Shown one piece after another: positions 28,301 through 44,666 of a stretch of 64,000 nucleotides of DNA. Made by a program: the position numbers and the translations under genes. The stretch's first letter is position 1, and each line of letters begins with the position of its first letter. The notes under the pieces were generated by a model. The model was not told the DNA's origin, searched no databases, and was given only the letters and a program-made list of their open reading frames with translations. Origin of the DNA: Candidatus Bathyarchaeota archaeon (lineage in GTDB: Archaea > Thermoproteota > Bathyarchaeia > TCS64). Location: positions 361,052 to 425,051 of the forward strand of contig CAVYLP010000004.1 of assembly GCA_963769425.1 (NCBI GenBank). Reading direction: 5' to 3'.

Positions 28301-30886
28301 CGCTGCTCTCCAGCTTTGCAGCGAAGCGCCTAGGCTTCGGGATAGGGTGAGGAGTTCATCACTTGGCTTTGTGGCTATGCAGAGGTTGTCCCTTGTCAGC
28401 TTCGGGGCTCTGGAGGAGTGTATTAGGTGCAGTATCTCTTTGGCGTTGTTGATTGCTTCTCCAGCGGCCTCTAGGTCGGGGTTTCCGTCCCGATAGTAGG
28501 CTCCAAGTCTGCTCTTAGCCTCCTCCTGCTCGGAGGCTACTGTCTTCTGCAGCTCCTTTAGCTCTAAACCCAATTTGAGATCTTGGAGAACAGTTATTGG
28601 GATTTCTCCGGTAATTGTCGCCCTTGATATTTCGTCCCTGATATTGTAGTAACTTGGCCTCAGGTATCTGAGGGGGGATGACCAGGTACCCTCAAGGTAG
28701 GTTATTATGGTTGGAAGATCAAGGGACGTAACCTCGTCCCTGTAAGCAGTGAGTTTTGACTTGAGTTCGTCTCTTTTTAGTCGCTGTGCCTTGGCCTTTT
28801 CGAGGTATTTCTCCGTCTGCTCAAGGTCAGCTTTATTGAGCCAGTTTCTATCAGGTTTGTTGGTACTTTCGCAGAGTTTTGTGATGCGGTGGATTCGTCT
28901 TGCCGTAGTGATTGTCAGTGTATCGGTGGGGAGACCCAGGATCGTCGAGATCTTTTCTGTTAACTCTCCCCATTTATCTGCGTCTCTTATGGTATGATCT
29001 AGGAATTTTATTAGGTCATCGAGGTGTTTTAGGATGTCCTGGTCGCCCTTGAGATTGGGTTGGAGGAGTTCGGAGGTTTTCTTCCAGGTTTCCTCGACTC
29101 TTTCAGCTGTGCCTCTTGGGAGACTCCTGAACCTGCTATCGTACCTACTTTCAAGGTCGGCTCTAATCGCCCAGTATTCGCCCCACTTCAGGTTATTTGC
29201 TTCAGCTACCTGTTGAACCTTGGTTAGGTCAACGTCTTGGAGCCAACGCTGTGGTGGGTGGGGGGTGGCTTCTATGATGTTCGCTAGTCTCTGGAGTGTG
29301 TCATAGCTTTCGAGGCTCTTCGGTGTATCGAGCCTGAGTTTTTCACAGTAGTCGTTTGCGTTTGAGTGTAGCTGTTTGGTTGCGTCTATTAGTGAGGTGA
29401 GTAAGTTGGTCCACTCATTGCGTACGTCTAATGTGTATGTTGTTGCTTTGCAGCCATTCCAGGGAAATTCTGCACCTTCTTCTACGACGACCCAGGAGTT
29501 TTGGAGGTAGTTGATCTGCTCTTCGAGGCTGAAGATTGTCTTCTGGTCGAGGGTGCTGAAGCTCGTGTACCCTGATGGGATTAGTGGAAGGGATCCGAGT
29601 TTTGCGACCTCGTTTAGGATCTTGTAGGCACTTGTGTTGGAGGGTTGTCTAGTCTTGTGGAGGGATTCAACGTATGTGTTTAGCTGGTTTCTCCGATGCT
29701 TGAGTCGTTCTATTTCCTCCTCGCTCATTCCTTTGCCTGGTTTCAGGTGCTCTGTTAGGGATCTGCTTAGCTCGTTGATGACCTCTCGCTTGTTTGCTTT
29801 GTAGCTGTGTAATTCGAGGCAGTACTCGTCGAGGTTCTTCTCCTTAAGGCGGTTGTATACTACCTCGAGTGCAGCCATCTTCTCGCTCACGAAGAGGACG
29901 CTTCTACCGGCGGCGATGTATTCGGATATTATGTTGGAAATTGTCTGGCTCTTTCCGGTTCCGGGTGGACCATGCATTACATAGGATTGTCCTCGGAGCG
30001 CGTATTGGATGCAGAGTTGCTGGCTGCTGTCGGCGTCCAAGATCTGGTACGTTTTGCCTGGGTCCACGATGGCGTCAAGGTCCTCGACCTTGGGTAGGTT
30101 TCGTTGGATGAGTCCAATGTTGGAGACTCCTGCTAGGGCCTTCAGGGTTGGGTGTTCGGTGATGCGTCTTAGGTTGTCCGTCATGTCCTGGTAAATCGCG
30201 AGTTTGGCGAAGCTGAATAGGCCAAGGTATACGGTGGGCTCGACGGTCCACCCCAGCTCTTTTACGACTGCTTTTATGGTCGCCAGGTAGCTTGACGGGG
30301 TCTGTTCCTCTTGCTCCTGGAGGTAGGAGAGGTCCAAGTCGTGCTCGTATTTCAGTTTGAGTATGAGGGCTGGGTTGACGAGCAGGTCTTCCTCTACTGG
30401 AGGTACCCTTATCTGGTATGGTTCACGCGTCGAGTCTCTTGTGAGCTCGACGGGGGTTAGGAGCAGGGGTGAGATGATCTCCTGGCTGCTATTCTTCTCG
30501 GTCCACCTCAGTTGGCCGAATGTTACGTAGAGGATCCGTATTCCACGTTCAGTGTACTCGGTTTGGGAGCGTCGGCTTAGGTTTCGGAGGGTTCTGTCGA
30601 GTTGGTTTGGGTCCGACGACTCTAAGGTGATCTCGTTGCTCTTGGGTGCCCTCTTTTTTGGTGTTGGCTCACCCGGCATCGTCGTTGGGGGTTGTTGGAT
30701 CTCCCAGCTTCTCCCCCTTGTGACGAGTCGGCTGTAAACGGCCTCCATGTCGGGGGAGGTGAGGGTGAGGAGTGAGGTTTTAGTTGGTTGGAGATAGATG
30801 GCTTTGTTTCTTTTAGTGAGGTCGATTAGGCGAAGCTTCCAGTCATCTACGCGTCTGGCTACCCTCTGGGATTCGGGAGATTCCAA
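25349..30886 (-). CDS. DUF4011-SF1 helicase-Vsr/MTES nuclease-DUF3320 protein (Hhe-type defence)
   Basis: WKLRLIDLTKRN (DUF4011); DADSSQ, HGPPGTGKSQTI, SEKMAAL, DEASQ, GDNKQLPP, HYRS, IQGDERD, RRLNVAVTRA; RDRDRLR..L..MGW..RIWS; C-terminal VEGPIH. Confidence 0.92.
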   Translation of the reverse strand: MESPESQRVARRVDDWKLRLIDLTKRNKAIYLQPTKTSLLTLTSPDMEAVYSRLVTRGRSWEIQQPPTTMPGEPTPKKRAPKSNEITLESSDPNQLDRTLRNLSRRSQTEYTERGIRILYVTFGQLRWTEKNSSQEIISPLLLTPVELTRDSTREPYQIRVPPVEEDLLVNPALILKLKYEHDLDLSYLQEQEEQTPSSYLATIKAVVKELGWTVEPTVYLGLFSFAKLAIYQDMTDNLRRITEHPTLKALAGVSNIGLIQRNLPKVEDLDAIVDPGKTYQILDADSSQQLCIQYALRGQSYVMHGPPGTGKSQTISNIISEYIAAGRSVLFVSEKMAALEVVYNRLKEKNLDEYCLELHSYKANKREVINELSRSLTEHLKPGKGMSEEEIERLKHRRNQLNTYVESLHKTRQPSNTSAYKILNEVAKLGSLPLIPSGYTSFSTLDQKTIFSLEEQINYLQNSWVVVEEGAEFPWNGCKATTYTLDVRNEWTNLLTSLIDATKQLHSNANDYCEKLRLDTPKSLESYDTLQRLANIIEATPHPPQRWLQDVDLTKVQQVAEANNLKWGEYWAIRADLESRYDSRFRSLPRGTAERVEETWKKTSELLQPNLKGDQDILKHLDDLIKFLDHTIRDADKWGELTEKISTILGLPTDTLTITTARRIHRITKLCESTNKPDRNWLNKADLEQTEKYLEKAKAQRLKRDELKSKLTAYRDEVTSLDLPTIITYLEGTWSSPLRYLRPSYYNIRDEISRATITGEIPITVLQDLKLGLELKELQKTVASEQEEAKSRLGAYYRDGNPDLEAAGEAINNAKEILHLIHSSRAPKLTRDNLCIATKPSDELLTLSRSLGASLQSWRAAQKPLRVILPERNQNGKTRFVNLPLRELKDWATELKKRLETLHEVLQPALITLTSDHPKTLLTLLLDIRKTERLQSFEEEETEQAYQLRETYGGLYQGTSTNWLKVIAAIEWTRALLKALPTKPTAEVIGFATDPTLEPPKFDSQKHLREIHSLINELNSRFSNPLWGERAQSLTVDEVLLVSEKLAQRIDDLQAWIDFNNSSSRLIEGGLRNLVEQLVEKRYRREILIDVYKKSIYSGLINYFAEEDATLGSFRAKDQDQVVDDFRSLDSALIERSPKKVIEAANAKKPQGVFVDAPDSEINILLKEAAKKRRQMPLRQLFNRVPNLIRRLKPCLLMSPISVSQFILPERLHFDLVVFDEASQIFTEDAVGSIYRGDTLIVAGDNKQLPPTPFFQYIAENDTEWEEATQEVGVYDSVLDECMGMGLPVSMLRWHYRSKHDSLIAFSNKEFYDNKLITFPPAANKGGELGLEFTYVPDGVYDRGGARNNPKEAVVVADIVFKHLTEHPEKSLGVMTFSISQMNTVKDEIEARLAQNPEYKNLLHEDRLRGFFVKNLENIQGDERDVIVISVGYGYDKGGVMTMNFGPLNMDGGERRLNVAVTRAREKVILVSSFKSSEIDLSTTKSVGVKCLHDYMTYVEQASKTPELPNEESTNLPEIQKDVAEEIRKLGYVAIPQIGESSLRVDIGVKTPENLHRFILGVILDGESYWSTATTRDRDRLRAQVLEGMGWDLHRIWSPEWVYRRATEVERLAQALKQAETHEKGHEKIQIKGTTPKKGIEYEKVTERRSDELPGSEPYRRASLESSQTFNSIPPSQRELYLDLYLLEIRNLLPKLVRVEGPIHLEYAFKRLNKAMNLKPAPPSFHKAYWATVEEMTKKGKLEKRGDYLWPMGVITVKMRVPLNGPEAEVRPIEYIPSEEIETMMLHVLSHSLGLSRESLIQETANAFRARQTPKTNKILETELEKMLVGNRINLEGKTLHLKK

Positions 30887-31236
30887 AACGACGGACCTTC
30901 TTTAAACAAAATAGTTTTCTCACAGGTTAAGAGTTTACACAGTATCAAAACTATGTTTACCGCTAAAATGGTCGAAGCCGTGTCCCTAGGAGAAGGTGGC
31001 AACTGAATTGGAGGTATGAAGGCGTACGAGTCTACATTATATTTAATTTAATGGGTAATTTTGCTTCATCACCGGGGCTAAAAAATGGATAGACATGACA
31101 TTTGTGCATGCTACAACTGCTCAGTACAGATGCGCGTGTTTAATGTATACTGGTGAATCACGAATAGGCTGGGTTGAGATGTGAGCGCATTTAATGAGGA
31201 GATTGTGGAAGTTGAAAGCGTGAGCTATGTCTTGAG

Positions 31237-31803
31237 TTATTCTCCCAAGAAAAGCAGATCATAATCAGTGAGGGTGGCTCTGATCTTCTCCACGGCCTCA
31301 TAGACCTGCTCTTCCCTCTTGGCGCCGGTTATCACGAGCTTCCCCGAGGCGAATACCAGCAGAACTACCTTAGGCTCCGTCATCCTGTAGATGGCGCCGG
31401 GGAACTGCTCAGGCTCATACATAACATTGTCCAAGACATCGGCCATCGTCTCCAGGTCGATCTTGCCGTAGAGGTTCGCTGAGGCGACCATGTTCTGGAT
31501 TACTATCTTCGGTTTCCCCAGGATGATGATCCCGTTCGTCTTCAGCTCTCTGACCACCTTCATCACCGCGCTCCTCGCCTGCTTCTCCGACTTCGCCCCC
31601 GTGCAGACCATCTTACCGCTGCCGAATACGAGGGTAGCCGTCTTCGGTCGCTTTAGCCTGAAGACTAGTCCGGGGAATTGCTTCGGCCGGTACTCCACGT
31701 TCTTAAAGACCTTCATGATGTCGAGGAGGTTTATCTTTTGGTCGAGGGTCACCGAGGCGACGACGTTCTGTATCTTCGTTTCGTATGGGCTTGGTTTGCT
31801 TAT
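31237..31803 (-). CDS. tbp: TATA-box-binding protein
   Basis: Two TBP repeats (IQNVVAS...YRPKQFPGLVFR...FGSGKMVCTGAK; IQNMVAS...YEPEQFPGAIYR...FASGKLVITGAK); the frame extends to ATA 31803 behind GGAGG. Confidence 0.95.
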   Translation of the reverse strand: MSKPSPYETKIQNVVASVTLDQKINLLDIMKVFKNVEYRPKQFPGLVFRLKRPKTATLVFGSGKMVCTGAKSEKQARSAVMKVVRELKTNGIIILGKPKIVIQNMVASANLYGKIDLETMADVLDNVMYEPEQFPGAIYRMTEPKVVLLVFASGKLVITGAKREEQVYEAVEKIRATLTDYDLLFLGE

Positions 31804-32603
31804 TTTTCAGCCCTCCTACTAAGCTCCCCTGAGACACTCTGCGTACTCGCCTCTGCCCGCCGTAAAAGCAGACATAGGACCCCATGAGGTAACGGAGTCA
31901 CGTTGTGAACCAAGACTCTCGGACTCAACCTTATTCAACCCGCCTTGTAACTATGCTGGTGTTGATCTCATCTAAACGTTCCATCAGTTTAACTCTCCGG
32001 CTTTGGGTTGTGTGCAAACCTCCTGCGAGGAGATAAAGAAAGTGCAAACAGGACCCTTTTACACGCTTTTCGTTATTGTTTGATGCTAAGGGCGCCAGTT
32101 TTTTTCAGGGTTTTGGCTGCGGAAACCCTTGCTGCTACAATCGCGTCAACCCTTGTCTTGCTATGCTTCTTTTTCCGGATTTTCTGTTTGAACATTTTTC
32201 TCATTTTCTTATCAAGCTCCTTTTCTTCATTCTGTCTCTTGTACCTTTTTAGATGAAAGCTTAGAATGGCACTTATTGTTATGCCGCCTGTGGTATAAAC
32301 CCGCTTATGATTCGTACGGCGACCAAGTTGACTGAAGGTACGCGATTACATCCAGCTTACACGGTTTGGGATCCGTTATAATCGCTTGTTGGTTGGTCTG
32401 CGACCACGGTTCTGAGGAGGCTCTTCGGTACCATAACTTTAATGTTCACTGACAAATAACTAAATATTGCTTAATGTAATGAGCAATAAATTTGGATATT
32501 GCTCAATAGAATGATCTTTAACTAATCAGGATTCTTAGTTGACCGCTAAATTATGATACTGCAAGGCTGCAATGTTATCTAGAGTAAATCGCACGCGCGC
32601 GGA

Positions 32604-32972
32604 TCACTGTGATGGGTAATGCTTCTTCGTCCCGCGAACGGTTTTCAATGCATCTTGTAGTTTTTCGTCCCGCTTCTCGGATTCTGTCAGTAGTCTGTAA
32701 CCTTTCTTCTCCTCTTTTATTTTCAATGGTTCGTCAGCTCCATTAGATCTACTTGAGGGTGGCTTAAGAACCTCTACATTCGAACTGATCTTGTTAAAAC
32801 AAACGTGTATATGATTATTGTACGTTGATAAGGAGAAGAAGAATAAGGGATACTGTCGCCTCACTATAGAAGCGAAAATGTTATGGTGGTCTTTGTACTG
32901 TTTACTAGCCCCCGTGGATTCACTCACGAGGATTCTCAGGCTCTGTGAATAAATCCGCGAACTCACCTCCAA
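32604..32972 (-). CDS. Basic hypothetical protein (probably only the 3' part is coding)
   Basis: Charged C-terminal half; start uncertain. Confidence 0.3.
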   Translation of the reverse strand: MEVSSRIYSQSLRILVSESTGASKQYKDHHNIFASIVRRQYPLFFFSLSTYNNHIHVCFNKISSNVEVLKPPSSRSNGADEPLKIKEEKKGYRLLTESEKRDEKLQDALKTVRGTKKHYPSQ

Positions 32973-33258
32973 TCAGCTCGGAAACAAAATTGCCCAAGTC
33001 TCATCAAAGCGAGACTTTCGCTACTAATTTTCTTCTATCGATTGGGGAAGAGGCTCCGACCTGCCACCTTTGAAGGTCACCGCGGACACACCGTAGTATT
33101 CAATAGATGGGATAAAACAAAATCATCTCATCTCAGCATCCGTGAATATGTATTTTTCCGCGTTCTTTGAAAATGTTCGGTTTTTATGGTTCTCTTAGGG
33201 AAGAGAGCGTCAGTTTTTTATTCGGTTCCATGAGACCCAGGCATAGACCTGATGTGGG

Positions 33259-33735
33259 TCAGAGCTCTAGACTACGCGAGGACTCCACGTTTACGGCGTT
33301 CAATCCCTCAGATGAAGCCGCATCTATCAACCGGTTGTCGGCCCCTAAAAATAGGTTGCATCCGACCCTTTTCCCCGCGGAGATCTGGAGTGCGTCAGCC
33401 TCGTAGATGTGATACTTGACAACATACGTCCATGATTGAGCGAGCTCCTCGGAAGATACGGGGAGCACCTCGAGGTAGCCCAATCTGCTGAGCTTCAACG
33501 TCTCGGAAACCAGGTCCGATCGGGCGTTCGCGAACTCCTTCTCGGAGATTAGCTTTCTTGTGAGGTATCTGTCGAATGCTCCGATCACTTCGCCTATGTT
33601 CCAGAGTGAGAATGCTAAGTGTATCTCTCCAGCCTCGGACTTGCTGTAAGCACTGTCTACGTAGTCTGAGCCCCTCTCCTCCAGGTACCTCTTCACGATG
33701 CAGCTACTGTCTAGGTACACTAGCTGCTCTTTCAT
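33259..33735 (-). CDS. vapC: VapC PIN toxin
   Basis: VYLDSSCIVKRY.EE.GS, WNIGE, ADALQI, ADNRL. Confidence 0.9.
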   Translation of the reverse strand: MKEQLVYLDSSCIVKRYLEERGSDYVDSAYSKSEAGEIHLAFSLWNIGEVIGAFDRYLTRKLISEKEFANARSDLVSETLKLSRLGYLEVLPVSSEELAQSWTYVVKYHIYEADALQISAGKRVGCNLFLGADNRLIDAASSEGLNAVNVESSRSLEL

Positions 33736-34000
33736 CTCTCATCGCCCTCACTTCCTTTCCGGCGGACCAGTCTACGGATGGTCTTCTATCCATTATCTCC
33801 GTAGACGATGGAATGACGTTGATTGGGATGCTCTCGCTTTTAGCATAGCTTGTGAGTATGGCTGTCGTGTTGTAGTTCCTCATTGCTTCGTTTATTGCTT
33901 GGCTAAGCTTCCTCGAGTCGCCGTACCGGGATGAGGCGGTCTTTTTGAACTCGCGGAGGGTCTCCTCATCTATGTTTACCGTTGTTTTCATAGAACGCAT
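33704..34000 (-). CDS. RHH antitoxin (VapB-like)
   Basis: MKTTVNIDEETLREFK...LSQAINEAM; overlaps vapC. Confidence 0.8.
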   Translation of the reverse strand: MRSMKTTVNIDEETLREFKKTASSRYGDSRKLSQAINEAMRNYNTTAILTSYAKSESIPINVIPSSTEIMDRRPSVDWSAGKEVRAMRDERAASVPRQ

Positions 34001-34236
34001 GTATGGCTCACCATATATATGGTGTGGTGCTCGTCTTTATGTGGATTCCGATGGTATACAATTTAATTCATACTTCCTTTAAAGCTTCGTTCCTCCAATC
34101 GTAAAAATTCAAGGAGGCGTTTTGTCTTATGTTTTTAAGCGTGTCGTGTTCGACCTCTGTTGGCCTCGACACAATGGGGTAGGAGAAGCTGAACGGGCAG
34201 CGTTTGTTCTGGCGTTTTTCCTCACTCAAATACGGT

Positions 34237-34612
34237 TCAGATAAATCCTAGCCTGCCGAGATGTTTCTCATCATTCGAATAGATTTTTGTAATTCCTAGG
34301 CGCTCCATTATCGCAAGGTTTACGGCGTCAAATCCACTCGCTGGGCCGCCATGAAGTTTGAGTCCATGATGAGGTCGTCTGAGTCGAAGCTGGTTACCGA
34401 AGATTGATGGATAGGATAGTATCTTCTCCAGCGTCTCTTTGATGTCCCCCTGCCTACCCATAGCCTCCAAGACCCACGCAACCTCACAGAGAACGAGTGT
34501 CGAGGTCGCAGCCTCCTTCCCCGACTCGATCTCTCGAGGATGGTGGTCGATGTTTATTTCGAATCGGGGGTGTGGCCACGTAGATGAAGATGTTTGTGTC
34601 TATGAAAAGCAT
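34237..34612 (-). pseudogene. VapC PIN toxin, frameshifted
   Basis: MLFIDTNIFIY / STLVLCEVAW / DAVNLAIM..ITKIYSND across frames. Confidence 0.75.
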
Positions 34613-34870
34613 CCGTTAGTCCCTTCCAGCGCTTTTCTGGCAGCGTGTATTCGAGCAAGTGCTTTGAGGTTGCCTACGGGCTCTGTGACTCTCACGCTGC
34701 CGAGTAGGGACTCGGTCGGTTTAGTGTATCTCTTGATGGGTATGAGTATTATTTATCCTCCTCTTTCCCTAACTCTGATTCGAGTCTTTTCCTCGATCTC
34801 CTTTTTTTCCCTTATTTCCTTGGGGAGTAAGATTCGACCCTCTTTTCCCATTTCGACATACGTTTGAATT
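34600..34870 (-). pseudogene. AbrB-type antitoxin with internal stop
   Basis: VEMGKEGRILLPKEIRE...RERGG*IILIP. Confidence 0.7.
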
Positions 34871-34965
34871 TATTTAGAAAACGATGATATTTACCATTAA
34901 TAAATTTATTCGACATTTATTCCTCCGAAGTAGAGAATATCTAATTATAGATACAATCCCGCGCG

Positions 34966-35628
34966 GATACCTGCCACTAGGAACCGGATTCCTACTAGGA
35001 TGGTATCTCGCGCACCTGTGGGTAGGAATCCCATTCCTAGTAGGGTGGAACCGCGGAGTGCTCACCACGACCCCTCCATACCTGCCACTAGGAATCTGAT
35101 TCCTAGTAGGGTGGTATCCCGGAAATTCGTCACTTTTTGCACCTGCCACTAGGAATCATCATCTTTGTACAAGTTGATCCGATAGCGGGATCAAATGATC
35201 CTGCCACTGGATCAGTTGATCCCACTAGGGGGGTATACGCTGATCCAAGTAGCTGTATCATATGATCCAGTAGGGGGGTACAGGTGTACACGATCTCCTG
35301 TCCATCTGATCCCAGTAGGTGGGGATCCAATTCCCAGTAGGTGGGATCGGTGTACCCAGTAGGGGGGTATAACGTTTTTTAAGCGTGTTTGATCCAAGTA
35401 GGATGGATCAGTGGTACCTAGTAGTAGGGTGCTTGGTACCAAGTAGGAGGGTACCGTCGGTACCCAGTAGCATGGTACCGGTGCTCGGATTTCGTGCATC
35501 TTGGTACCGTGTAGCTGGGAACTCGGTACCATGTGGCGTGGATTATGGTACCCTGTAGGGTGGTTCGGGGTACCCATGTAGGGTGGTATAAGGTTTTTTC
35601 ATCGCGTCGGTACCATGTAGCAGGTACA
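34966..35628. repeat. Array of ~24 gapped palindromes, WWCC-N7-10-GGWW, many with a GTAG core
   Basis: Examples: GATACCTGCCACTAGGAACC, GATTCCTAGTAGGGTGGTATC, TGATCCAAGTAGGATGGATCA, GGTACCAAGTAGGAGGGTACC. Confidence 0.9.
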
Positions 35629-35812
35629 ACGTCTTCGATACATCTTTTTACTCTTCCCAATGGAAATAGGTCTTTGATTGGCGAGAACTGCTAGGGTTTC
35701 AAAGCTATATGCGAGTAGGTCGGGTTCCTGCCTGTTTAGCTAGGAAGCTATCTCCAGGAGCCGTATATAGGTCCTGTAGGGGCTCCCTATATACTGCGGA
35801 TACTGAGAAAGG

Positions 35813-36283
35813 TTACGCCTTGAGGTAATGGATCATCAGCTGATTGTATTTGCTGGTTAACCGGAACATATCTAATCTTTCAGCGAGATTACGCCTTGAG
35901 ACAAGGTCCCTAACCCTCGCGGCTAATACGTTGAAGGAAGAGAGGTTCTGCGACTTCACGCAGCACTCGTCGGCGCCGACCTTGAGCGCCCTCTCCGCGA
36001 TCATGTCGTCGTCGTGGCAGGTGAATAATACGAAGGGCGCCTTGTATCCATCGCTCCTCAGCTTCTTACAGAGCTCCACACCGTTCATCTGGGGCATCTG
36101 GTAGTCGCTTACGACGCAGTCGAATTGTCTGTCTCTGAGGAGTTCAAGTGCCTTATCCGCGGAGTTGGCATTCTCGAAGCTGAAGTTCTCGTCCTCTCGG
36201 CTTAAGGATAGGTTGATTAGTTCTAGCTGTCCAGGGTCGTCGTCGACTAGTAGGACTCGTATAGCCTTGTTTGTCTGGCTCAT
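35813..36283 (-). CDS. Stand-alone response regulator receiver
   Basis: MSQTNKAIRVLLVDDD, DCVVSDYQMPQMNG, FVLFT, GADECCVK. Confidence 0.88.
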   Translation of the reverse strand: MSQTNKAIRVLLVDDDPGQLELINLSLSREDENFSFENANSADKALELLRDRQFDCVVSDYQMPQMNGVELCKKLRSDGYKAPFVLFTCHDDDMIAERALKVGADECCVKSQNLSSFNVLAARVRDLVSRRNLAERLDMFRLTSKYNQLMIHYLKA

Positions 36284-36503
36284 CCCCCCAAGATTGGGAA
36301 TCGCGGAATATAATACACTAAGCATTTTTCGCTGGTGCATTCAAAATTAGTGATTCTCATTCCTCTGTGCTCATGGGCGATAATTGAAAGCGGAGCGTTG
36401 AGGGTACAGGAGGGCAAAGATGATGAGGCTGCGCGCATGCTGTCGTATAGCCACTTGGCTTAAGCATTCAAGCAGAGGATACGACATAAATCAATCGATG
36501 GGT

Positions 36504-36899
36504 TCACCATGAGTCAACACGGAGCCCTTCGACCCTTTCAAAGTGCTTCCGGTTAGATGTGACGATTCCCTCGCCGTGGGTTAAGGCAAGGCTTGCGATC
36601 ATGGCGTCGAGGTCCCCGATTGGGGCTCCTCGTAGTCCCTCGCTCGCCATCAGTCTACCGTAGCGTTCGGAGGCTTCGACCGTGAAGCTTAACATCTCGA
36701 GGAAGCTTAGGGTCGTCTTCACCTTGTGAAGCTCCTTCTCCCTCTTTGTTGACCTGTAGGCTCCTTTGAACAATTCGCATGCAGTGATGGGGGTCGTAGT
36801 CAGCCTCGTCTCTGAGGCGGTGTATTCCTCGAGCTTGGCGAGCGCTCTCTCATCTCGCCTTATCAAGGCGATGATGAAGCTCGTGTCCAGACACACCAT
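36504..36899 (-). CDS. vapC: VapC PIN toxin
   Basis: CLDTSFII, TACEL, DLDAMIA, TSNRKHF. Confidence 0.93.
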   Translation of the reverse strand: MVCLDTSFIIALIRRDERALAKLEEYTASETRLTTTPITACELFKGAYRSTKREKELHKVKTTLSFLEMLSFTVEASERYGRLMASEGLRGAPIGDLDAMIASLALTHGEGIVTSNRKHFERVEGLRVDSW

Positions 36900-36908
36900 A
36901 AGCAGCGC

Positions 36909-37139
36909 CTAGTCTTCGAGAGGCCTCGATGATATGTTGCTGCGATCCTTGAGCACTGTCTCTAGGGTCGCTGTGAACTCCTCGTCTGGTTCCAGAGTTT
37001 TTATGTAGTCCAGCAGGGTTCCTTTTTCGGTTCGCTTGGTTAGCCTGAGTATGGTCTCTGTGAATGACTCGCGTTCCTTCTTCATCTTGGATAGTGCGTT
37101 ATAGGCCTCATCGGATACGGTGAGTGTTCTATGACCCAT
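36909..37139 (-). CDS. vapB: Archaeal VapB antitoxin
   Basis: MGHRTLTVSDEAYNALSKMKKERESFTETILRL. Confidence 0.88.
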   Translation of the reverse strand: MGHRTLTVSDEAYNALSKMKKERESFTETILRLTKRTEKGTLLDYIKTLEPDEEFTATLETVLKDRSNISSRPLED

Positions 37140-37199
37140 ATTTGAGAATACACATACGTGTGTTATTAATATTTTGCCAGCTCCACGATCCAATCAGAC

Positions 37200-37728
37200 G
37201 AGGGGGTTTAACTGAGTTATATCGTAATCTTAGAGAGTATCCTAGACTACAAGCCGAATGCGAGGCACTCAACATCCTTGAGGTGAATGAGTTATGTGGG
37301 GAGTCAATCTCAAGGATCCTAGTCAACAATCTATCAAAAATCCCCATGAAGAGGGCGCGAATAGAGACATCAGTATAGAAGATATGTACGAGCAACAAGC
37401 TGTCATGATCAACCCTACTGCAATAGACACGGAACGGGCAACGCTCTATGAGAAAGCCGCCTCCATCAAGCCGAAGAGGCTGTTTGAGGGTCCCTTAAAC
37501 TCCGATTACGACAGACAACGATACGTCTGGGACGAAATAGGGGAGAGACTCGGGGCTGACAGGGCCGATTGGTATGATAAAAATGAGGGCCTCTCAGAGG
37601 AGAGCAAAGAGTCGAAGGTGTTCGAGATCTGTAATCTCATGAATGGTGAGAGAACCTTGCTGGATATCAGAAACATTGTGTCACTTGAGTATGATGAGAC
37701 TGACATCGACTTCGTGCTATCTAGTTGA
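37200..37728 (+). pseudogene. C-terminal remnant of a DUF4910/M28-like peptidase (winged-helix tail)
   Basis: FEICNLMNGERTLLDIRNIVSLEY; frameshifted upstream; no catalytic domain. Confidence 0.45.
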
Positions 37729-37870
37729 GGACCTCTTCGACATCGGGTTAGTCTCCAAAAATAGATTGAAACTTCACTACTTAAGATCTCTTCACAGAAT
37801 TTTTACGGATTAATGTGGGATGTATGGAAACCTATGTATAATAGTTTTTATCTTCACAAATATGATAAAG

Positions 37871-39115
37871 ATGGTTTCAAAATTGATTTTTATCAAGAGT
37901 AAAGTGATAGTCGACTCAAATGGAGTCAGGGAAGGGCAAAATGTTTTGATCGATGGGGACACCATCAAGGAGGTCGGCGAGGGGTTGACTCCACCGAGTG
38001 GAGCACAGGTCATCGACGCCTCTGCCCAGATTCTGATGCCGGGTATGATCGATTGTCATGTCCACTTCAGCGGATCAGTCACTGGAGGCATACAGAAGTT
38101 CACCGAGAGTTTTGAGGTTCGACTCATCAGGTCGGCTACCTTGGAGGCACGAGCCTTGTTGATGGCCGGCTTCACATCAGTGATGGACGCAGGCGGCTTG
38201 GTTGGATTCCATGTGAGAAACGCAATCGAGGAGGGTGTTGTCCCTGGTCCGAGGGTGATGGCCGCCGGTAGATACATAGGGATAACAGGCGGTCACGGTG
38301 ATACCCACTATCTTCCCCTTGAGTGGGTTAAGGAGGGTAGGCCATTCGGCTGGGGGATGGATGGAAGGATCGCGGACGGAGTCGATGAATGTGTTCGAGC
38401 GGTTAGGGAGCAGCTCAGGGAGGGGGTTGACTTCATAAAGATACTGACAAGCGGCGGAGGGGGGAGCCTTCGTGACCCACCTTGGGTGCCCGAGTATAGC
38501 TATGAGGAGATCAAGGCGATGGTTGACGAGGCCCACAGTTGGGGGCGGCGGGTGATGGCCCATTGCTATAACCCAGAGGCGATTAAGCGTTCAGTTGAGG
38601 GTGGGGTGGACATCATCGCGCATGGAAACATGGCTAACGAGGATTCGATTAGATTAATGAGGGGTAGGAATGTGACGGTTGTCCCCACGATGTCGATCTA
38701 CCAGGCCATTGCTGACAGGATCTCCTTGGGTGGCAGTCATCCGGGGGGTAATGTGACTGGTGGCTTATACTCCACGTTGTATGAGGATGTGAAGCGGTTA
38801 TACGATGGGGGTTTGAACTTGGCTCTGGGGACTGACACTATGGGTGATCCGCTTCCATTCGGTAAGGATGCGAGGGAGCTTCAGCTCTACGTTGAGAAGG
38901 TTGGCCTCTCACCGCTCTCGGCGATTAAAATCGGTACCTTGAATGGGGCAAAGGTGATGGGTAGAGGCGACTTGGGTTTGATTGAGGCGGGGATGAAGGC
39001 GGACATAATCGCGCTTGAAAGAAACCCTATTGAAGATATCCGCTGCCTACAGGACGAGGATAATGTTAAACTCGTGATTAAGGGTGGGATCGTCTATAAG
39101 AATGGTCTTCTTTGA
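37871..39115 (+). CDS. Amidohydrolase (prolidase/Xaa-Pro dipeptidase-like)
   Basis: MPGMIDCHVH, AGFTSV.DAG, TGGHGD, DFIK, MAH, IAHG, LGTD, G.I..G..ADII. Confidence 0.93.
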   Translation: MVSKLIFIKSKVIVDSNGVREGQNVLIDGDTIKEVGEGLTPPSGAQVIDASAQILMPGMIDCHVHFSGSVTGGIQKFTESFEVRLIRSATLEARALLMAGFTSVMDAGGLVGFHVRNAIEEGVVPGPRVMAAGRYIGITGGHGDTHYLPLEWVKEGRPFGWGMDGRIADGVDECVRAVREQLREGVDFIKILTSGGGGSLRDPPWVPEYSYEEIKAMVDEAHSWGRRVMAHCYNPEAIKRSVEGGVDIIAHGNMANEDSIRLMRGRNVTVVPTMSIYQAIADRISLGGSHPGGNVTGGLYSTLYEDVKRLYDGGLNLALGTDTMGDPLPFGKDARELQLYVEKVGLSPLSAIKIGTLNGAKVMGRGDLGLIEAGMKADIIALERNPIEDIRCLQDEDNVKLVIKGGIVYKNGLL

Positions 39116-39165
39116 GTTGACCGGTTCTAAGTAGCATCGTCGTCAAGCTAAGATTAGGGCTCAAG

Positions 39166-39462
39166 TTAAGGAAATCCAAAGATAATTATGACTACTCCAA
39201 GAATTATTACAAGCATTATTAAAAGTAGAAGAGTCGTTCGAAAAACTCCCATCGGTTTTTTTTCGGTATTCCCCTCAGATTCAAAGTCCCTGGGATGATT
39301 TCCTGCTAATCCCGCTCCTATCCCCTCTGGAGCTGGCATCCACTCTGTACCGCAATCTGAACACTTCAGCACTGGCACTAGTATGGTAAGATCAATTATC
39401 TTTGTGTTCTTTGAGCCACACTTCGGACACGTGAGAGAACTCTTCTCTCCAGTTGAATCCAT
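39166..39462 (-). CDS. Zn-ribbon membrane protein
   Basis: CPKCGS...CSDCG plus C-terminal TM; likely start MDSTGEK. Confidence 0.6.
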   Translation of the reverse strand: MDSTGEKSSLTCPKCGSKNTKIIDLTILVPVLKCSDCGTEWMPAPEGIGAGLAGNHPRDFESEGNTEKKPMGVFRTTLLLLIMLVIILGVVIIIFGFP

Positions 39463-39690
39463 TTCAGACAAACGGACTACTGTATCCTTAAGGGTGATTG
39501 AGATAAAAAAAGTGTGTGTCTTTATTGTATACGACCCTTTGAGGCCTTTCAAAATTCATATTATTCGCGAGAAGGCATTGAATATTCGCCCGTTAAGGGC
39601 GTCCGATTAAGTCGCGACAAGTTATCAGAACCCATTTACCCTACATTTATTATCTACAAACAATAAAATCAGATCTGGGTGAGTTGACTG

Positions 39691-40053
39691 TTGAGGACCT
39701 ATGTGAAGATTCAAGCGAGCGTGGAAGAGGTTAAGGAAGCTATCAAGAAGCTTGAGAGAATAGCTGTTGAGACACCGAGGATTTGTGTAATGGATACGAT
39801 CATTGACCAGGAAATGCCGCCTATTACGAGCACGGATGTGAATGAGCAGTGGACGCGATCATACTTCAATCTCGAGGCCGCAGATGTAGAACGGTGTTCC
39901 ACAATTGTTGCTAAGACCGATAAAGATCTGGGTGGATCAGACCTCTACTTCGAGTGGCTTTCGACTCCCGACTCTCGTGAGATCGAGGAACTGAGAAAGA
40001 AGATATCATCCGCCCTGAGGCCATTAAAATTCACGATAACAAATAAAAAATGA
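39691..40053 (+). CDS. Hypothetical protein
   Basis: GGGTGAG RBS; 120-aa ORF. Confidence 0.6.
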   Translation: MRTYVKIQASVEEVKEAIKKLERIAVETPRICVMDTIIDQEMPPITSTDVNEQWTRSYFNLEAADVERCSTIVAKTDKDLGGSDLYFEWLSTPDSREIEELRKKISSALRPLKFTITNKK

Positions 40054-40062
40054 CCCTTTGTT

Positions 40063-40350
40063 TTGGGCGGTAAAAGGTTATATCAGCCCTTAAGTAGCCT
40101 AATTTGGGCGGATATTTTGGTTACGAGGACGGAGGCATTCCTATTCCTGAGTAATGTCGCTGTGTTTATTCTCGTGCCAATCGACATCGCCTTTTTAGCA
40201 GGATTTTTCAAATTACCCGGCGATTACCTGTTCCTAGCTAACCTGTTTGGAGTAGCCCTAACCCTCGTTGCCTTTAGGATAAAGAGGAGGATCAGGATGG
40301 AGAATGAGGCTAGGGCGGAGAGACCTGTGGTGAAGGCTGAGTCTTCTTAG
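40063..40350 (+). CDS. Small membrane protein
   Basis: Two TM helices and a basic tail. Confidence 0.5.
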   Translation: MGGKRLYQPLSSLIWADILVTRTEAFLFLSNVAVFILVPIDIAFLAGFFKLPGDYLFLANLFGVALTLVAFRIKRRIRMENEARAERPVVKAESS

Positions 40351-40639
40351 TTTTCTTCTCGTTCTCCGCTTTGTCGAGTCGAGAGATGAGTCCCTCGACG
40401 TTTCTCTTCTTCCTGAGTAGGGCCATGTACCTGTCGATGCCGATGAAGTCAAAGTATGGACCATACAGTCCCATCCATAGCTCCGCGAATAGGTTTGTTA
40501 ACGGACCACCGCTTTCGAGAAGCATGAGTGCGAGTGTTCCAAGCCTGCGTTTGACGAGTCTCTTAACGATCTCGTCTATTAGCCGCTCCTCCTCCTCTGG
40601 GGGAAGGTCCTCCCACTGTTTCCACTCGCTGTCACTCAT
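40310..40639 (-). CDS. Hypothetical protein, last gene of the DUF6754 operon
   Basis: EEERLIDEIVKRLVKRRL...LLES..PL; GAGG RBS. Confidence 0.7.
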   Translation of the reverse strand: MSDSEWKQWEDLPPEEEERLIDEIVKRLVKRRLGTLALMLLESGGPLTNLFAELWMGLYGPYFDFIGIDRYMALLRKKRNVEGLISRLDKAENEKKTKKTQPSPQVSPP

Positions 40640-40686
40640 TCAGCCTCATCCTCATAATAAAGAAGATAAAATATAAAAAAAGGGAG

Positions 40687-41397
40687 TCACTCTTCAGGCG
40701 TCAATCTTTCCAGTAGCTTCATCCTATCTAGCAGCATCACTGCGCCGAATACGATGATCAGGCTACCTAGTAAGTAGGGTATCTTCCAAGGCGGAACCAT
40801 GTAGTTCTGCATGAAGCCGACGAAGAGGCTTAGTCTGCCCATGAAGGTCTGTGCGAAGATGGCTCCAAATGCCGCGTACATCAGGTACTCCCCTATCTTG
40901 GAACTCACGCCGAGTGCACCCTTCATCTCCGTTGAGTAGAAGAAGAAGGTGAGCATGAGGATCGTCGACAGGGCGATTGTCCAGTTGTATAGTAGTCCTT
41001 GGGCTGAACCCGTGAGTAGGGGAAGGATTGTCCCCCTGATTTGGTCTAGGAAGCCTGTGAAGATCGTTGTACGCAGGGCTAACCCGAGCTGGGCCCCTAT
41101 CGTGATGGCTATGGGTATCCTAGCTATGTAGTTGTACTTTGGGTGTAATCTGGTGAGTGTTACTAGTCCGAGTATGATGCCGAATACTAGAATCGTGTCA
41201 CCTGCTTGTACGCCGAGTATTCCGGTGTTGTAGATGAAGAGGAGGTTCACTACTACTGTGAGCCCCGTCGCGAAGCCTATGTATGACTCCTCTGCTAAGG
41301 CGTAGAGTGGGTTGCTCTTGCCGTACAGGGTGGTAAACATGCAGATTGCTATGAAGGCGCCTACTGCGACTGTCGAAATCTCAAATATGTCTGTCAT
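40687..41397 (-). CDS. Polytopic membrane protein
   Basis: LYGKSNPLYALAEESYIG, YLMYAAFGAIFAQTFMGRLSL; ~7 TMs. Confidence 0.8.
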   Translation of the reverse strand: MTDIFEISTVAVGAFIAICMFTTLYGKSNPLYALAEESYIGFATGLTVVVNLLFIYNTGILGVQAGDTILVFGIILGLVTLTRLHPKYNYIARIPIAITIGAQLGLALRTTIFTGFLDQIRGTILPLLTGSAQGLLYNWTIALSTILMLTFFFYSTEMKGALGVSSKIGEYLMYAAFGAIFAQTFMGRLSLFVGFMQNYMVPPWKIPYLLGSLIIVFGAVMLLDRMKLLERLTPEE

Positions 41398-42260
41398 TTT
41401 TGTCCCTCCTTCTTCTTCATCTCGCTCCTGTATCCGAAGTAGCCGATGTTTCCGAGGAGTATCGCTATCATCAGCATGTAGTGACCTAAGGTAAACGAGT
41501 TCATGGCTGTGAGGCCTGGCCCAGGTGCCGATATTAGGTACTCGAGCTCAGCTCCGCCTCTCATGCTCTGAAGCACTGCTTTGTATAATCCGGCTTGTAG
41601 GTAGGGTAACGAACTTGATATCATGACACCAATTACGTTCACGATGATTGGCGTTCCGCTCTGGCCGAAGTGCCTGACTATGGCCTCCGACTGTACTCCG
41701 GTTGTGTACTCTGATATGAGTGTCCAATCTTGCCATGTGTTAACATTGTCTAAAAATGTGCCCTGTATAGAGTTGCCGTTTCTGTCCTGCCGTATCATGT
41801 TATGGAAGTTCTGAGACATTGATGCCACGGCCGCTTCGTTGGGGAAGACGTAGCCAAGATCGATGTAGTTTACACCGTAGACGTAGTTGTTCTCGGTCAT
41901 TACACTGCTAAGCTGGTCGTAGAGGAGCTGCGGTATCCCTGTGGCTTCTGGGTGTGATTCTATGATGCATAGATTCACATGTTTTGATAGCATCACCCTC
42001 ATGGACGCGATTATTCCGGACTGTAACTCCATGTAGCCGCTGAACTCGGTGTCGAGGAGGAGCATGACTGTGTCACCGCTCTTGAGATTGTTGAGCTGGT
42101 CATCGTATAATTTGGTGTCTGCACTTACCTCAATTGGTAGTATGAAGGGCTGCAATAGGGGTGCTAGGACCAGTATGAAGATTAGTAGGTATATTATTCG
42201 TCTGTCGTATTCAACTAGGAATCTGTACATGCTTCTGTTCCCCTCCTTTTGCTGGGTCAT
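41394..42260 (-). CDS. Membrane protein with a large soluble alpha/beta domain
   Basis: DRRIIYLLI, YGVNYIDLGY, PYLQAG....L..MRGGAELEYL; translationally coupled. Confidence 0.8.
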   Translation of the reverse strand: MTQQKEGNRSMYRFLVEYDRRIIYLLIFILVLAPLLQPFILPIEVSADTKLYDDQLNNLKSGDTVMLLLDTEFSGYMELQSGIIASMRVMLSKHVNLCIIESHPEATGIPQLLYDQLSSVMTENNYVYGVNYIDLGYVFPNEAAVASMSQNFHNMIRQDRNGNSIQGTFLDNVNTWQDWTLISEYTTGVQSEAIVRHFGQSGTPIIVNVIGVMISSSLPYLQAGLYKAVLQSMRGGAELEYLISAPGPGLTAMNSFTLGHYMLMIAILLGNIGYFGYRSEMKKKEGQK

Positions 42261-42261
42261 T

Positions 42262-42909
42262 TTAGCTGGATTCCTCCTTTTGTATGCCGATAACGTTCGG
42301 CTCCTTACCCATTAGGACCCTCATGCCGAAGACGATTGCACCAACGGTTACGCTGATTAGGAACATTGTCCCTGCCGCTGTGACTATCGTTGTCCTGAGG
42401 TAATCTGCCGTTGGGGTGAGCTGGGGGAAGAATGCCCCGGTTAGGGGGGCCTGATAGAATAGCACGATGAAGCCGGTTATGAGGAGAAGCAGTGCCCTAA
42501 GATTCCTTGCTCTGAAAGCCCTTGCCCCAGTCGATGCCATGTAGAAGACCAGTATACTGTAGTTTACCGAGCTGAGTGGGGTGATTATTGAGTACATTAC
42601 CCATGCATAGGGTCCTGTGTTCTCACCCCATAATGCGTAGAAGATGAGCATCAGGACCAGTGTGACGAGCATATAGGCTTTGAATATCCAGCCTCGACTT
42701 CTCCGGTTGATGAACGAGAAACCGCGTCTGAACTGCGAATACACGGCGAGCGCTATGGTGAAGGCGCTTACGACGGCGGTTATTGTGATTAACTCGTTTG
42801 AGAACCAGTCAAGTGAGGGTATTGGGATGAAGTAGGGGATGAAAACGACGAGGAAGGCAAGGATCAGTAATGCGAGCTGAAGTTCTCTACTTTTTAGGAA
42901 TGCTGACAT
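42262..42909 (-). CDS. Polytopic membrane protein
   Basis: SILVFYMASTGARAFRARN; GMRVLMGKE. Confidence 0.8.
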   Translation of the reverse strand: MSAFLKSRELQLALLILAFLVVFIPYFIPIPSLDWFSNELITITAVVSAFTIALAVYSQFRRGFSFINRRSRGWIFKAYMLVTLVLMLIFYALWGENTGPYAWVMYSIITPLSSVNYSILVFYMASTGARAFRARNLRALLLLITGFIVLFYQAPLTGAFFPQLTPTADYLRTTIVTAAGTMFLISVTVGAIVFGMRVLMGKEPNVIGIQKEESS

Positions 42910-42921
42910 TCATTTTACCTC

Positions 42922-43722
42922 CTAGGTGAGCAGGAGGCGAACAATGAAGTCGCTTCCTGCCGCGAAAAGTATCAAGCCCACGATCATCAAACCTAGGGCC
43001 AAGGCCTTGTAGATGTCTTGGACTCGAATGCTTCCCCTCTGAGCTGGGTCCTTGGAGAGGTATGCACCCGCTGCGGGTGATTCCTCGCCGATTAGGATAT
43101 AGTCCGAGGCGCATGCTAGCGCTGCCGTGTTCGAGATGTATGCCCCTGACGAGATTGTGATTGCCCCGATTGCGTTTGAGGTCTCGGCGATGTTCATGGC
43201 GTCCGACGCGTGGTAGCCAGCCATGATCACGGCCGCGGGTCTTGCCCTTTGGAGTATGCCCACGTATCCTCCTACGTAGGCGTACTGTTGCCCACTTAGG
43301 AATGGGACATCATCCGGGTTGAACTCCTCGGGTTTACCCTGTACGACGTAGGCAGTCTTCACGATCTCCTCGGCTACGGGTCTGACGATTAGTGAGGCAT
43401 CTGATCCTCCGGTTGGCACTATTATCCTCACGCCGGTTTTAACACACGTCTCCGCGACGTGTGAGAGGATAGCCAACCCTGCCAGCGTCCAGTAGTCGAA
43501 GCCTGACCCCGCGATTCCGAAGGATGTTACTACGGGTTTACCCATCTCGGCTGCCCTGCCGACGGCCTCCTCGATCGCGTCGAGGCCGGCCACCCTTCGG
43601 ATGTGTATTGGCGTCTTTGACCTCATGTAATAGATAACTAATAGTAAAAGCGCTATGTTTAGAATTAGACCAAGTACTCTTCCTGAACTAACGCCTGGAA
43701 CCTCGAAAAGTGCTGTTGCCAT
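42922..43722 (-). CDS. DUF6754-family membrane protein
   Basis: IRRVAGLDAIEEAVGRAAEMGKPV, DYILIGEE..AAGAYLS, QD..K. Confidence 0.8.
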   Translation of the reverse strand: MATALFEVPGVSSGRVLGLILNIALLLLVIYYMRSKTPIHIRRVAGLDAIEEAVGRAAEMGKPVVTSFGIAGSGFDYWTLAGLAILSHVAETCVKTGVRIIVPTGGSDASLIVRPVAEEIVKTAYVVQGKPEEFNPDDVPFLSGQQYAYVGGYVGILQRARPAAVIMAGYHASDAMNIAETSNAIGAITISSGAYISNTAALACASDYILIGEESPAAGAYLSKDPAQRGSIRVQDIYKALALGLMIVGLILFAAGSDFIVRLLLT

Positions 43723-43916
43723 TTTCTTAGTCCGAATTAACTGTTAGTCTTCATAATCTATATTAAACTTTAGACCATAATAAATGAAAAAATGGTTATT
43801 TAATTGTTTTTTTAAGGAAAAATAGTTAATAAAAACTTAATTTATTTTAACGCCACAGGTCGCATTTCCGATCACTTATTTATTCTTCCAGATAACTGTC
43901 TTATGGGTGTGTAGTA

Positions 43917-44666
43917 GTGGAGAACTTTTTGTATAAGCTGACTCGACCCGAGATCGAGGAGTACCTCAAGAAAAGTGATGTTGTGCTCTTTCCAGCTGGC
44001 TCGACGGAGCAGCATGGAAAACACATCGCGATCGATAATGACGCGTTTACGGCCCTGGAGATATCTAGGAGGGTTGCAGAGAAGACTGGTGTCTTGGTTG
44101 CGCCTGTGATGCCTTTTGGTTACTCGATCCACCACATGAATTTCCCCGGTTCAATCACGTTAAAGTTTGACACCTTGGTCGCCGTGTACAAGGAGGTCTG
44201 CGAGAGCCTGATTCACCACGGCTTCAAGAAGATAGTCATCATGAATGGACATGGCGGAAACATCAGTGCGGTTAACCAGGCTCTTCGAGAAGTCAGAACT
44301 GAGGATAGGATCATCGTCTACAACGTTATGGTTTTCCCGATGGAGAAGGGATTCGGATCAGATTCTTTAACTGTGTGCAAGCAGGAGTCCGGCGGGCACG
44401 CTTGCGAGATGGAGACGAGTATCGGTATGGCACTTGGTCAGAGGATCCTCATCGGGCAAGCTGAGAAGTGGAAGCCCCCGGCGGGGATGACTGAGTTCGA
44501 TAAGAAATATGGCCACAAGGTCTCTACGGCGAGGGACTTCGATGAGATCACTGAGATTGGCTCACTGGGTGACCCAACCATCGCCTCTAAGGAAAAGGGA
44601 GAGGCTATGGTGAACGCGGTTGTTAGGGACATCTCGGAGTTCGTCGAGGATCTGAAGAAGCTCTAA
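43917..44666 (+). CDS. Creatininase-family amidohydrolase
   Basis: PAGSTEQHGKH...D, GYSIHHMNFPGSI, NGHGGN, GHACEMETS. Confidence 0.93.
   Translation: MENFLYKLTRPEIEEYLKKSDVVLFPAGSTEQHGKHIAIDNDAFTALEISRRVAEKTGVLVAPVMPFGYSIHHMNFPGSITLKFDTLVAVYKEVCESLIHHGFKKIVIMNGHGGNISAVNQALREVRTEDRIIVYNVMVFPMEKGFGSDSLTVCKQESGGHACEMETSIGMALGQRILIGQAEKWKPPAGMTEFDKKYGHKVSTARDFDEITEIGSLGDPTIASKEKGEAMVNAVVRDISEFVEDLKKL

Follow-up and report, generated by a model that had tools for sequence, protein, structure and literature searches.

Palindromic repeat arrays in a Bathyarchaeia genome as probable amplified relics of a terminase-cassette intergenic element

The array of gapped palindromic units at positions 34966-35628 of the 64,000-nucleotide stretch of Candidatus Bathyarchaeota DNA analyzed here (the window) appears, from sequence comparison, to be three concatenated amplified copies of a virus-derived intergenic element. 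It is one of about 26 such arrays in the 2.55-Mb genome, and these are very probably amplified relics of the intergenic element of a terminase cassette, with an ancestral gene sense corresponding to the window's - strand. Dispersed palindromic repeat families have been well studied in bacteria, as in the case of REP/BIME elements with their RAYT transposases; to our knowledge such families have hardly been described from archaea, and where they come from is as a rule unclear. In the present genome the flanking sequences allow the origin to be traced: an element of one hairpin that is widespread in Bathyarchaeia seems to have grown in one lineage into arrays of up to about 20 units at about 26 sites, and the array core has been conserved while the surrounding genes decayed.

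Results

Structure of the array in the window

Direct reading of the sequence gave about 25 units of the form [T/A][T/A]CC-N2-GT(A/G)G-N2-4-GG[T/A][T/A] between 34966 and 35628, mostly spaced at 22-24 bp, in agreement with the roughly 24 gapped palindromic units reported in an initial annotation of this DNA and far from what chance would produce. That annotation also described the arms as palindromic and as graded along the array. Strong arm complementarity is present at this locus, whose GATCC and GGTACC classes are the most palindromic in the family, but it is weak across the genome-wide family of 206 parsed units. Similarly, the succession from GATTCC/GGAATC through TGATCC/GGATCA to GGTACC is real, but it is not a gradient; rather, three modules with separate homologues have been concatenated. 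A search of 34900-35700 with the regex CCNNG[TC][AG]G recovered 16 units on the + strand and 7 on the - strand, the distances between consecutive + strand units so found in the right part of the array being 22, 22, 39, 23, 22, 24, 44, 22, 22, 23 and 39 bp, and TRF reported sub-arrays at 35311-35367 (period 22) and 35413-35480 (period 24).

The strand given for each module is the inferred sense of the ancestral genes. The left part of the array (34966-35158) falls in module A (34943-35163, - strand) and has seven units set as head-to-head pairs, which make three long imperfect hairpins and one half-unit, bearing out the larger hairpins proposed earlier for the left-hand units; an A/T-rich stretch at about 35121-35145 precedes the last unit. 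Blast against the genome found homologues of module A, each 91% identical, at C6:437466-437681, C3:378746-378915 and C3:264103-264265, the second of which lies directly against the start codon of a small gene that has decayed. A further match, C4:409568-409735, corresponds to 48517-48684 of the window and lies in a second, smaller array (48437-48684, - strand) composed of an end unit with box, one unit, one long hairpin and a long variant of the module A tail.

The right part of the array (35173-35628) consists of two modules with about 18 units, almost all of which carry GTAG on the + strand. Module B1 (35173-35406, - strand), with about 10 units and (T)GATCC / GGATC(A) arms, matched C2:37929-38162 at 87% over 237 bp and no other locus in the blast search of the genome. 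Its end box (35366-35380, - strand) reads GGTATAACG and then T6 on the + strand and is BRE/TATA-like when read on the - strand; one last unit, at 35388-35410, comes after it. Module B2 (35411-35628, - strand) has 8 units with GGTACC arms and a TRF period of 24, and it likewise closes with a BRE/TATA-like end box (35585-35599, - strand; GGTATAAGG then T6) and a last unit (35607-35628). Homologues of B2 were found at C4:178019-178231 (87%), C6:520450-520636 (78%) and C3:290525-290839 (77%, to window position 35724), and homology to sister loci extends until about 35724, beyond the last unit. Elsewhere in the genome the same modules and additional classes (TTCC arms, GTTCC...GGTGTC, GACTCC) follow one another in different orders, and some whole module classes in this genome have non-complementary arms.

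A CRISPR was rejected, as it had been in the initial annotation, because units lie 0-4 nt apart, differ from one another and have no unique spacers between them. A coding reading as a repeat protein was also rejected: TTCC-class arrays have stops in all frames, unit spacing is no multiple of 3, and paralogous arrays, when compared, have no open frame that is consistent across them, marking the array as non-coding. In the B modules the C/A-rich - strand is open in several frames simultaneously. No Rfam family matched in the array region, the only gathering-score match in the window being a tRNA at 50444-50515, and there is no tRNA inside 34966-35628.

The phased direct repeats at 21-22 bp resemble iterons, and it had been suggested that the array might be a replication origin or a centromere-like site, that is, an iteron origin or partition centromere serving either the chromosome or an integrated replicon. 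This seems to us very improbable, given about 26 loci in 2.55 Mb and a single Orc1/Cdc6 gene (a Cdc6_C match at C1:24396-24674) on another contig. There is also no AT-rich unwinding region, GC being 0.48 in the 2-kb bin that contains the array. A Pfam scan of the 19 ORFs from 25349 to 44666 found a DUF4011/helicase/REase protein, TBP, two PIN proteins, VapB, a response regulator, an amidohydrolase, DUF6754 and creatininase, and no Rep, Orc, ParA or SegA family, so that the ParA/SegAB linkage expected for a partition site was absent from these neighbors.

A dispersed family of arrays

A unit regex combined with blast of the left module identified about 26 loci and 272 regex units in the genome. 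The regex alone gave 22 clusters (at least 4 matches within 80 bp), whereas a single shuffle of the whole genome in 500-bp blocks gave 0, and a three-unit pattern had 53 matches against 0 when read backwards. There are 5-22 units per locus, multiplied by tandem duplication, and all arrays are polar, with a run of units followed by a conserved box, about ten bases and one last unit. Among 226 spacings the peaks are at 21 bp (52), 22 bp (30), 23 bp (19) and 24 bp (11), with 82 spacings at 21-22 bp, or about two turns of the helix. Of the 206 parsed units, 83 have T/T as their innermost arm pair, and 92 have a Watson-Crick pair there, where base frequencies would predict 79. The array regions are intergenic by ORF maps, 10 of the 26 arrays being situated between convergent genes, and no flanking gene family of at least 60 aa recurs in more than 2 of 19 loci. 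The possibility that arrays serve as host-gene promoters was rejected, the neighbor on the small-gene side being co-oriented in only a minority of loci on a crude ORF map.

Substitutions were compared in 11 pairs of paralogous modules that were 84-96% identical. Differences were found at 13 of 629 core positions (CC, GTAG, GG; 2.1%), 42 of 623 arm positions (6.7%), 56 of 346 variable loop bases (16.2%) and 143 of 1257 spacer positions (11.4%). The rate of change at spacers is therefore about five times that at core bases when paralogous modules are compared, a difference that does not follow from position classes having been defined on one member per pair, as that bias inflates core conservation up to about two-fold. 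Gene conversion could be an alternative source of the apparent constraint.

This bears on whether the arrays could be selfish or neutral repeats, REP/BIME- or MITE-like, that spread, grew by slippage and recombination and are now functionless, with their conservation reflecting youth, gene conversion or the needs of their own spread. We consider this rather unlikely. It fits the scatter of about 26 intergenic loci beside unrelated genes, including those between convergent genes, as well as the shuffling of modules between loci, the lineage-specific expansion and the small-gene heads cut at varying codons that are described below. It does not fit the roughly five-fold better retention of cores relative to spacers. 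Moreover, no transposase candidate was found: a PF01797 search of the whole 2.55-Mb genome (91% complete) for Y1/HUH transposases had 0 matches, the control being found in 6 of 14 known genomes, and the HUH TnpA whose co-occurrence was to be checked according to the initial annotation was thus not found. A non-exhaustive search identified no terminal inverted repeats or target duplications.

The REP/BIME elements of Proteobacteria, whose imperfect palindromes carry GTAG (or CGTC) at their 5' foot and which are associated with a RAYT transposase (Y1/HUH, IS200/IS605-like), resemble the present family in having short palindromic GTAG units in hundreds of copies and in intergenic clusters, often between convergent genes, and in modules that are combined differently from locus to locus. 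Here, however, GTAG stands at the unit center or loop in all classes rather than at the hairpin foot, units are mostly tandem and direct with a 21-24 bp period rather than alternating, and the origin of the arrays is traceable to a terminase-cassette intergenic region in an archaeal host. The initial comparison to REP/BIME is therefore apt insofar as this is a dispersed, clustered, intergenic repeat family, but membership is not indicated, with no Y1/HUH gene found, a central GTAG and mostly direct units.

Cassette remnants and end boxes

Searching the 26 array regions with 500 bp on either side (hmmsearch) revealed the head of a small gene and/or the tail of an ATPase/GNAT gene in 7, with heads in 5 regions (E 5e-4 to 2e-26) and tails in 5 (E 9e-7 to 9e-22). 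The order was tail, array, head in 7 of 7, on the strand opposite GTAG. The fusion gene is reduced in this genome to its last 25-70 codons, adjoining arrays, and the small-gene heads are truncated at codons 8, 13, 14, 21 and 35. Several arrays adjoin the start codon of a small ORF directed away from them, and a further array, at C3:227224, has a terminase fragment on the expected side. Homologous arrays and a consistent gene linkage are thus both present, which speaks for a real element, the initial annotation having named the lack of both as grounds for refuting it. The array at 34966-35628 itself has no significant gene remnant within 500 bp on either side and no terminase nearby, and its link to the cassette comes from module homology to arrays that do have remnants. 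The sole full terminase gene of this genome (C2:93487-94815) is in the sole intact small-gene/terminase cassette (C2:93487-95193), which has no upstream array. Only 2 of the 26 arrays (C4:352 and C6:641) adjoin a small gene that is still open, so most could not regulate the small gene in cis.

The consensus of the array end box is GGTATAA[C/G]G, sometimes an A, then T4-8, and 16 of its 18 occurrences in the genome are at array ends. For comparison with promoters, a PWM was built from the regions upstream of the 42 tRNA genes of the genome, where a box with consensus AAAAGTTTTAAAT ends 18-27 nt ahead of the tRNA in 40 of 42 genes and the 42 promoters score a median of 11.9 and a minimum of 3.3. 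The B1 end box (35379, - strand) scored 8.3, in the top 0.09% of genome positions, and the B2 end box (35598, - strand) scored 9.8, in the top 0.036%, with 10.2 on the + strand at 35588. In gene sense 12 of the 16 in-array boxes score 8.3-9.8. The other strand scores similarly, so that the PWM leaves the direction of transcription unfixed; the gene arrangement in relatives favors gene sense. On that reading the TATA-like box and the start site would enclose the first unit, another unit would lie upstream and the others would be in the leader.

The ancestral cassette in relatives

In relatives a 480-aa ABC-ATPase/GNAT fusion gene is followed in order by the small gene, another small gene encoding a coiled coil and the gene for the terminase large subunit, which matches phrog_2 (E 3.6e-33) and Pfam Terminase_6N (35.8 bits, the cut-off being 22). 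The fusion product matches Pfam ABC_tran and Acetyltransf_1 as well as phrog_293 and phrog_11143, and has homologues in more than 2,600 clusters at E<=1e-10, under the JGI name 'ABC-type ATPase with predicted acetyltransferase domain'. Between the ABC-ATPase/GNAT gene and the small gene, related Bathyarchaeia have an intergenic element of one to five units, usually with an A/T-rich TATA-like box. Each unit there is an inverted repeat whose stem varies and whose center is conserved, GCTAC in gene sense, which is GTAGC on the + strand of the window. G002, a member of the same genus, keeps an ATPase/GNAT gene of almost full length, after which come one unit, an A/T box, two units and the small gene, and it also carries mini-arrays of 3-5 units each. 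G017 has three units and the same box.

Perfect stems of at least 6 bp within 80 nt upstream of the small gene were found in 10 of 29 relatives' loci (mean 1.95 and maximum 7 in 300 shuffles), and stems of at least 5 bp with a CTAC/GTAG/GTTAC-type loop in 8 of 29 (shuffle mean 0.35, maximum 3). The loop in those eight loci is (A/C)RGCTAC(C/T)A in gene sense, the reverse complement of the GTAG core of the window units, and stems differ entirely between loci, with at least 6 unrelated stem sequences among the hairpin-bearing loci. In at least 8 of the 29 loci the hairpin precedes the start codon by 12-40 nt and is immediately followed by a Shine-Dalgarno-like GGTGG/AGGAG.

The gene that precedes the ancestral hairpin thus belongs to a known terminase-adjacent ABC-ATPase/GNAT family, but what is known there is the protein, and the hairpin or array element and its amplification are a separate feature. 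No description of the array element or hairpin was found in the literature. In the part of a Bathyarchaeia virus preprint (10.1101/2023.08.24.554615) that was available, the fusion gene (as 'acetyltransferase', 'ABC' or 'GNAT'), 'cos' and such repeats are unmentioned, and its supplements might list such genes.

The small cassette protein

The small ORF begins M-R-K/S-Y-V/I-F-T-E-x-E-R-R-R-L and encodes an arginine-rich protein of about 80-95 aa. There are four full-length copies in this genome (79-130 aa; C2, two on C3, C4) and a 43-aa truncated copy (C6); C2:94957-95193 and C4:351953-352123 are two of the places where the protein is encoded. It is encoded in 40 of 71 genomes of the taxonomic family, and its profile collected 172 representative proteins at E<=1e-3 from a library of 1.84 billion. 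The protein is modeled as a two-helix hairpin and as a symmetric homodimer with a score of 0.79, against 0.00 for the best of 3 controls, with partner pLDDT of at least 88 and runs that agree in at least 100% of contacts; the mark used for dimers was reached by 20 of 30 proteins solved as same-chain pairs and by 1 of 23 solved as single chains. It matched no Pfam, PHROG, NCBIfam or PADLOC family and has no recognizable DNA-binding fold, and comparisons with the PDB gave nothing below E 0.15 by sequence and nothing below E 7 by Foldseek, with no usable match in the ESM Atlas.

Discussion

If the arrays are relics of the cassette element, what the element did in its original setting and what the arrays do now are separate questions. 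It is quite possible, if somewhat short of probable, that the units are DNA sites for the small dimeric cassette protein around a promoter, binding being predicted from the arrangement of units and the dimer model. The small protein would bind units on both sides of the TATA-like box, which would make the element in origin the operator and promoter of the small-gene/terminase operon. Copies of the protein that remain in the genome may still occupy the arrays, and such putative occupancy would account for the conserved core bases. The initial proposal of a phased binding array for a dimeric protein is to this extent plausible, the ancestral neighbor protein being modeled as a symmetric homodimer. 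The operator reading is opposed by several relatives' loci, such as L047 and L059, in which the hairpin is intercistronic and has no TATA-like box.

An alternative explanation is that the units act as leader or intercistronic RNA hairpins, transcribed on the - strand from the TATA-like box or within the operon of the relatives, the arrays being multiplied leaders. The loop, (A/C)RGCUAC(C/U)A, would be read by the small protein or by the ATPase/acetyltransferase, or would control the stability or translation of the message. A conserved loop with freely varying stems, placed just before a Shine-Dalgarno-like sequence in at least 8 of 29 relatives' loci, is what would be expected of a single-stranded hairpin of RNA or ssDNA, contrary to a classical operator, and in L047, L048, L059 and L061 there is no promoter-like box, which puts the hairpin inside the operon transcript. 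Both strands of the window array also fold better than shuffles (z -3.2 to -7.25; for module A, -3.66 on the - strand and -3.22 on the + strand). Nonetheless we regard RNA hairpins as an unlikely basis for the family. Modules B1 and B2 together fold better on the + strand, antisense to the genes, than on the - strand (z -7.25 vs -5.45), and no Rfam family matches. Duplex DNA is favored over RNA by the occurrence of both unit orientations relative to the gene (in the module A pairs and in L063 and L071) and by the many units that cannot pair, with the T/T clash directly beside the CC/GG pair in 83 of 206 and some module classes non-complementary throughout; a period near two helical turns and the modeled symmetric homodimer point in the same direction.

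Returning to predicted binding by the small protein, repeated operator or centromere arrays that flank a promoter and are bound by small dimeric proteins are known from ParR-parC of plasmid R1, omega of pSM19035 and the MetJ boxes. The cassette element is like these in having helical-turn-spaced repeats on both sides of a core promoter, upstream of a gene for a small dimeric basic protein. It differs in that no ribbon-helix-helix or HTH family could be detected for the small protein, there is no partition ATPase, the arrays are mostly orphaned from the gene, and the unit center is conserved while the arms vary.

The position of the ancestral element, immediately upstream of two small genes that precede the terminase large subunit, also brings to mind lambda cosB and the pac sites of P1 and SPP1, where clusters of short repeated sites lie beside or within the small terminase gene. 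The small proteins in the terminase position could assemble on the units and direct the terminase, as at cosB or pac, and the arrays would then be relics or mimics of a packaging recognition site. This appears improbable. In contrast to cos and pac, no cut site, virion ends or structural genes were seen beside the cassettes examined, and there are many copies on the host chromosome; cassettes on long contigs (G282:C58; G000 C2) have no recognizable portal or capsid genes after them. A viral contig collection had no close relative of the ATPase/GNAT gene, and its terminases were only 21-25% identical. Neither small cassette protein matches a small-terminase family, the best match, to Terminase_7 (E 0.043), being below its cut-off.

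It could also be that the orphan arrays are kept by the host because they act in trans, either as decoys that titrate the small DNA-binding or packaging protein of incoming elements, much as extra iterons exclude a plasmid by titration, or as entry sites for GTA-like packaging by the remaining terminase cassette. We consider this quite improbable. Were it so, an archaeon would have domesticated a viral cis-element in many copies on its chromosome, a kind of host use of such elements that would be new. Setting action in trans aside, the derivation of the arrays from the cassette provides a concrete pair for testing, namely a small dimeric protein of a family with no fewer than 172 representative clusters and the motif that it probably targets, and a way into the ATPase-acetyltransferase/terminase module of archaeal viruses, which is unstudied.

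Distribution of arrays

The three-unit pattern was sought in 400 other genomes of the class, in which it had at most 3 matches each, single matches being obtained there with the reversed control as well. Two of these other genomes have different repeats. In G021 a 20-bp tandem repeat in four copies shares the string CCTAGTAGG and lies upstream of a ParB-like gene that has no homologue in the window's genome; there is no terminase cassette nearby, and the repeat was provisionally treated as unrelated. G150 has an exact 27-bp tandem, as judged from matched strings alone. Three same-genus assemblies of 20-90 contigs had no arrays, and many other genomes are fragmented, with arrays possibly under-assembled. 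Seven DNA sequencing runs contained small shares, 0.05-0.16, of an 8-kb stretch of this DNA. True arrays accounted for 2 of 61 pattern matches in public metagenome contigs and for 0 of 26 in species-representative genomes, the others being single chance matches. This distribution suggests that the array expansion is specific to the present lineage. The wider archaeal scan proposed in the initial annotation did, within the class, locate related arrays, by inspection only in G002, the expansion otherwise looking confined to the lineage of the window.

Results and Discussion

The terminase cassette was found on its own at two loci, one in the window's own genome (L092, G000 C2:93487-95193) and one in another genome (L098, G282:C58), in each case comprising the small gene encoding the dimer-forming protein, the second small gene and the terminase large subunit, with the ABC-ATPase/GNAT fusion gene either present or absent. 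Portal and capsid matches were absent from the genes next after these two cassettes; of these genes, one matched cytochrome c assembly families and the rest had no family or lay on the opposite strand. Instead of belonging to a provirus, the terminase cassette may be an element complete in itself. Cassette genes, seen in many small-protein loci in relatives' genomes and among ABC-ATPase/GNAT homologues, were very commonly positioned on contigs of only 2-5 kb, and several shared one distance to the contig end, about 2707-2713. This pattern suggests that the element is present in multiple copies and disrupts short-read assembly in many Bathyarchaeia. In one relative (L087, G002:C47:55200-57900) the ABC-ATPase/GNAT gene ahead of a mini-array matched in two reading frames, reflecting a frameshift in this copy or else a mistake in the assembly.

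Exact tandem repeats occurred in two other genomes. In G021 a 20-bp repeat in four exact copies (L013 and L100, G021:C1:1008585-1008652) contained CCTAGTAGG, a 9-mer identical to that of many units in the window's genome. A ParB-like gene lay directly downstream, its protein having no homologue in the window's genome, and the terminase cassette was not found near these repeats. An exact 27-bp tandem repeat in at least five copies (L030, G150:C61:4765-4880) matched the three-unit pattern used for genome scans; judging from the matched strings alone, this is probably a chance match.

The surroundings of the main array (34966-35628) look like a region of defence and toxin-antitoxin genes, with a minus-strand ORF of 1845 aa (25349-30886) carrying DUF4011, helicase domains of the AAA_11/AAA_12 type and a restriction-endonuclease-like MTES_1575 domain, and two PIN/VapB-type pairs close by (33259-34000 and 36504-37193). 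On the minus strand at 33125-33165, a remnant of the head of the small gene, reading ..EKYIFTDAEMR*, stood alone with no array adjoining it. Another array of this family, smaller than the first, lies in the window at 48437-48684, about 1.8 kb away from a tRNA-Cys gene (50441-50515). It consists of an end unit with its conserved A/T box, a further unit, a single long hairpin and the long form of the module A tail.
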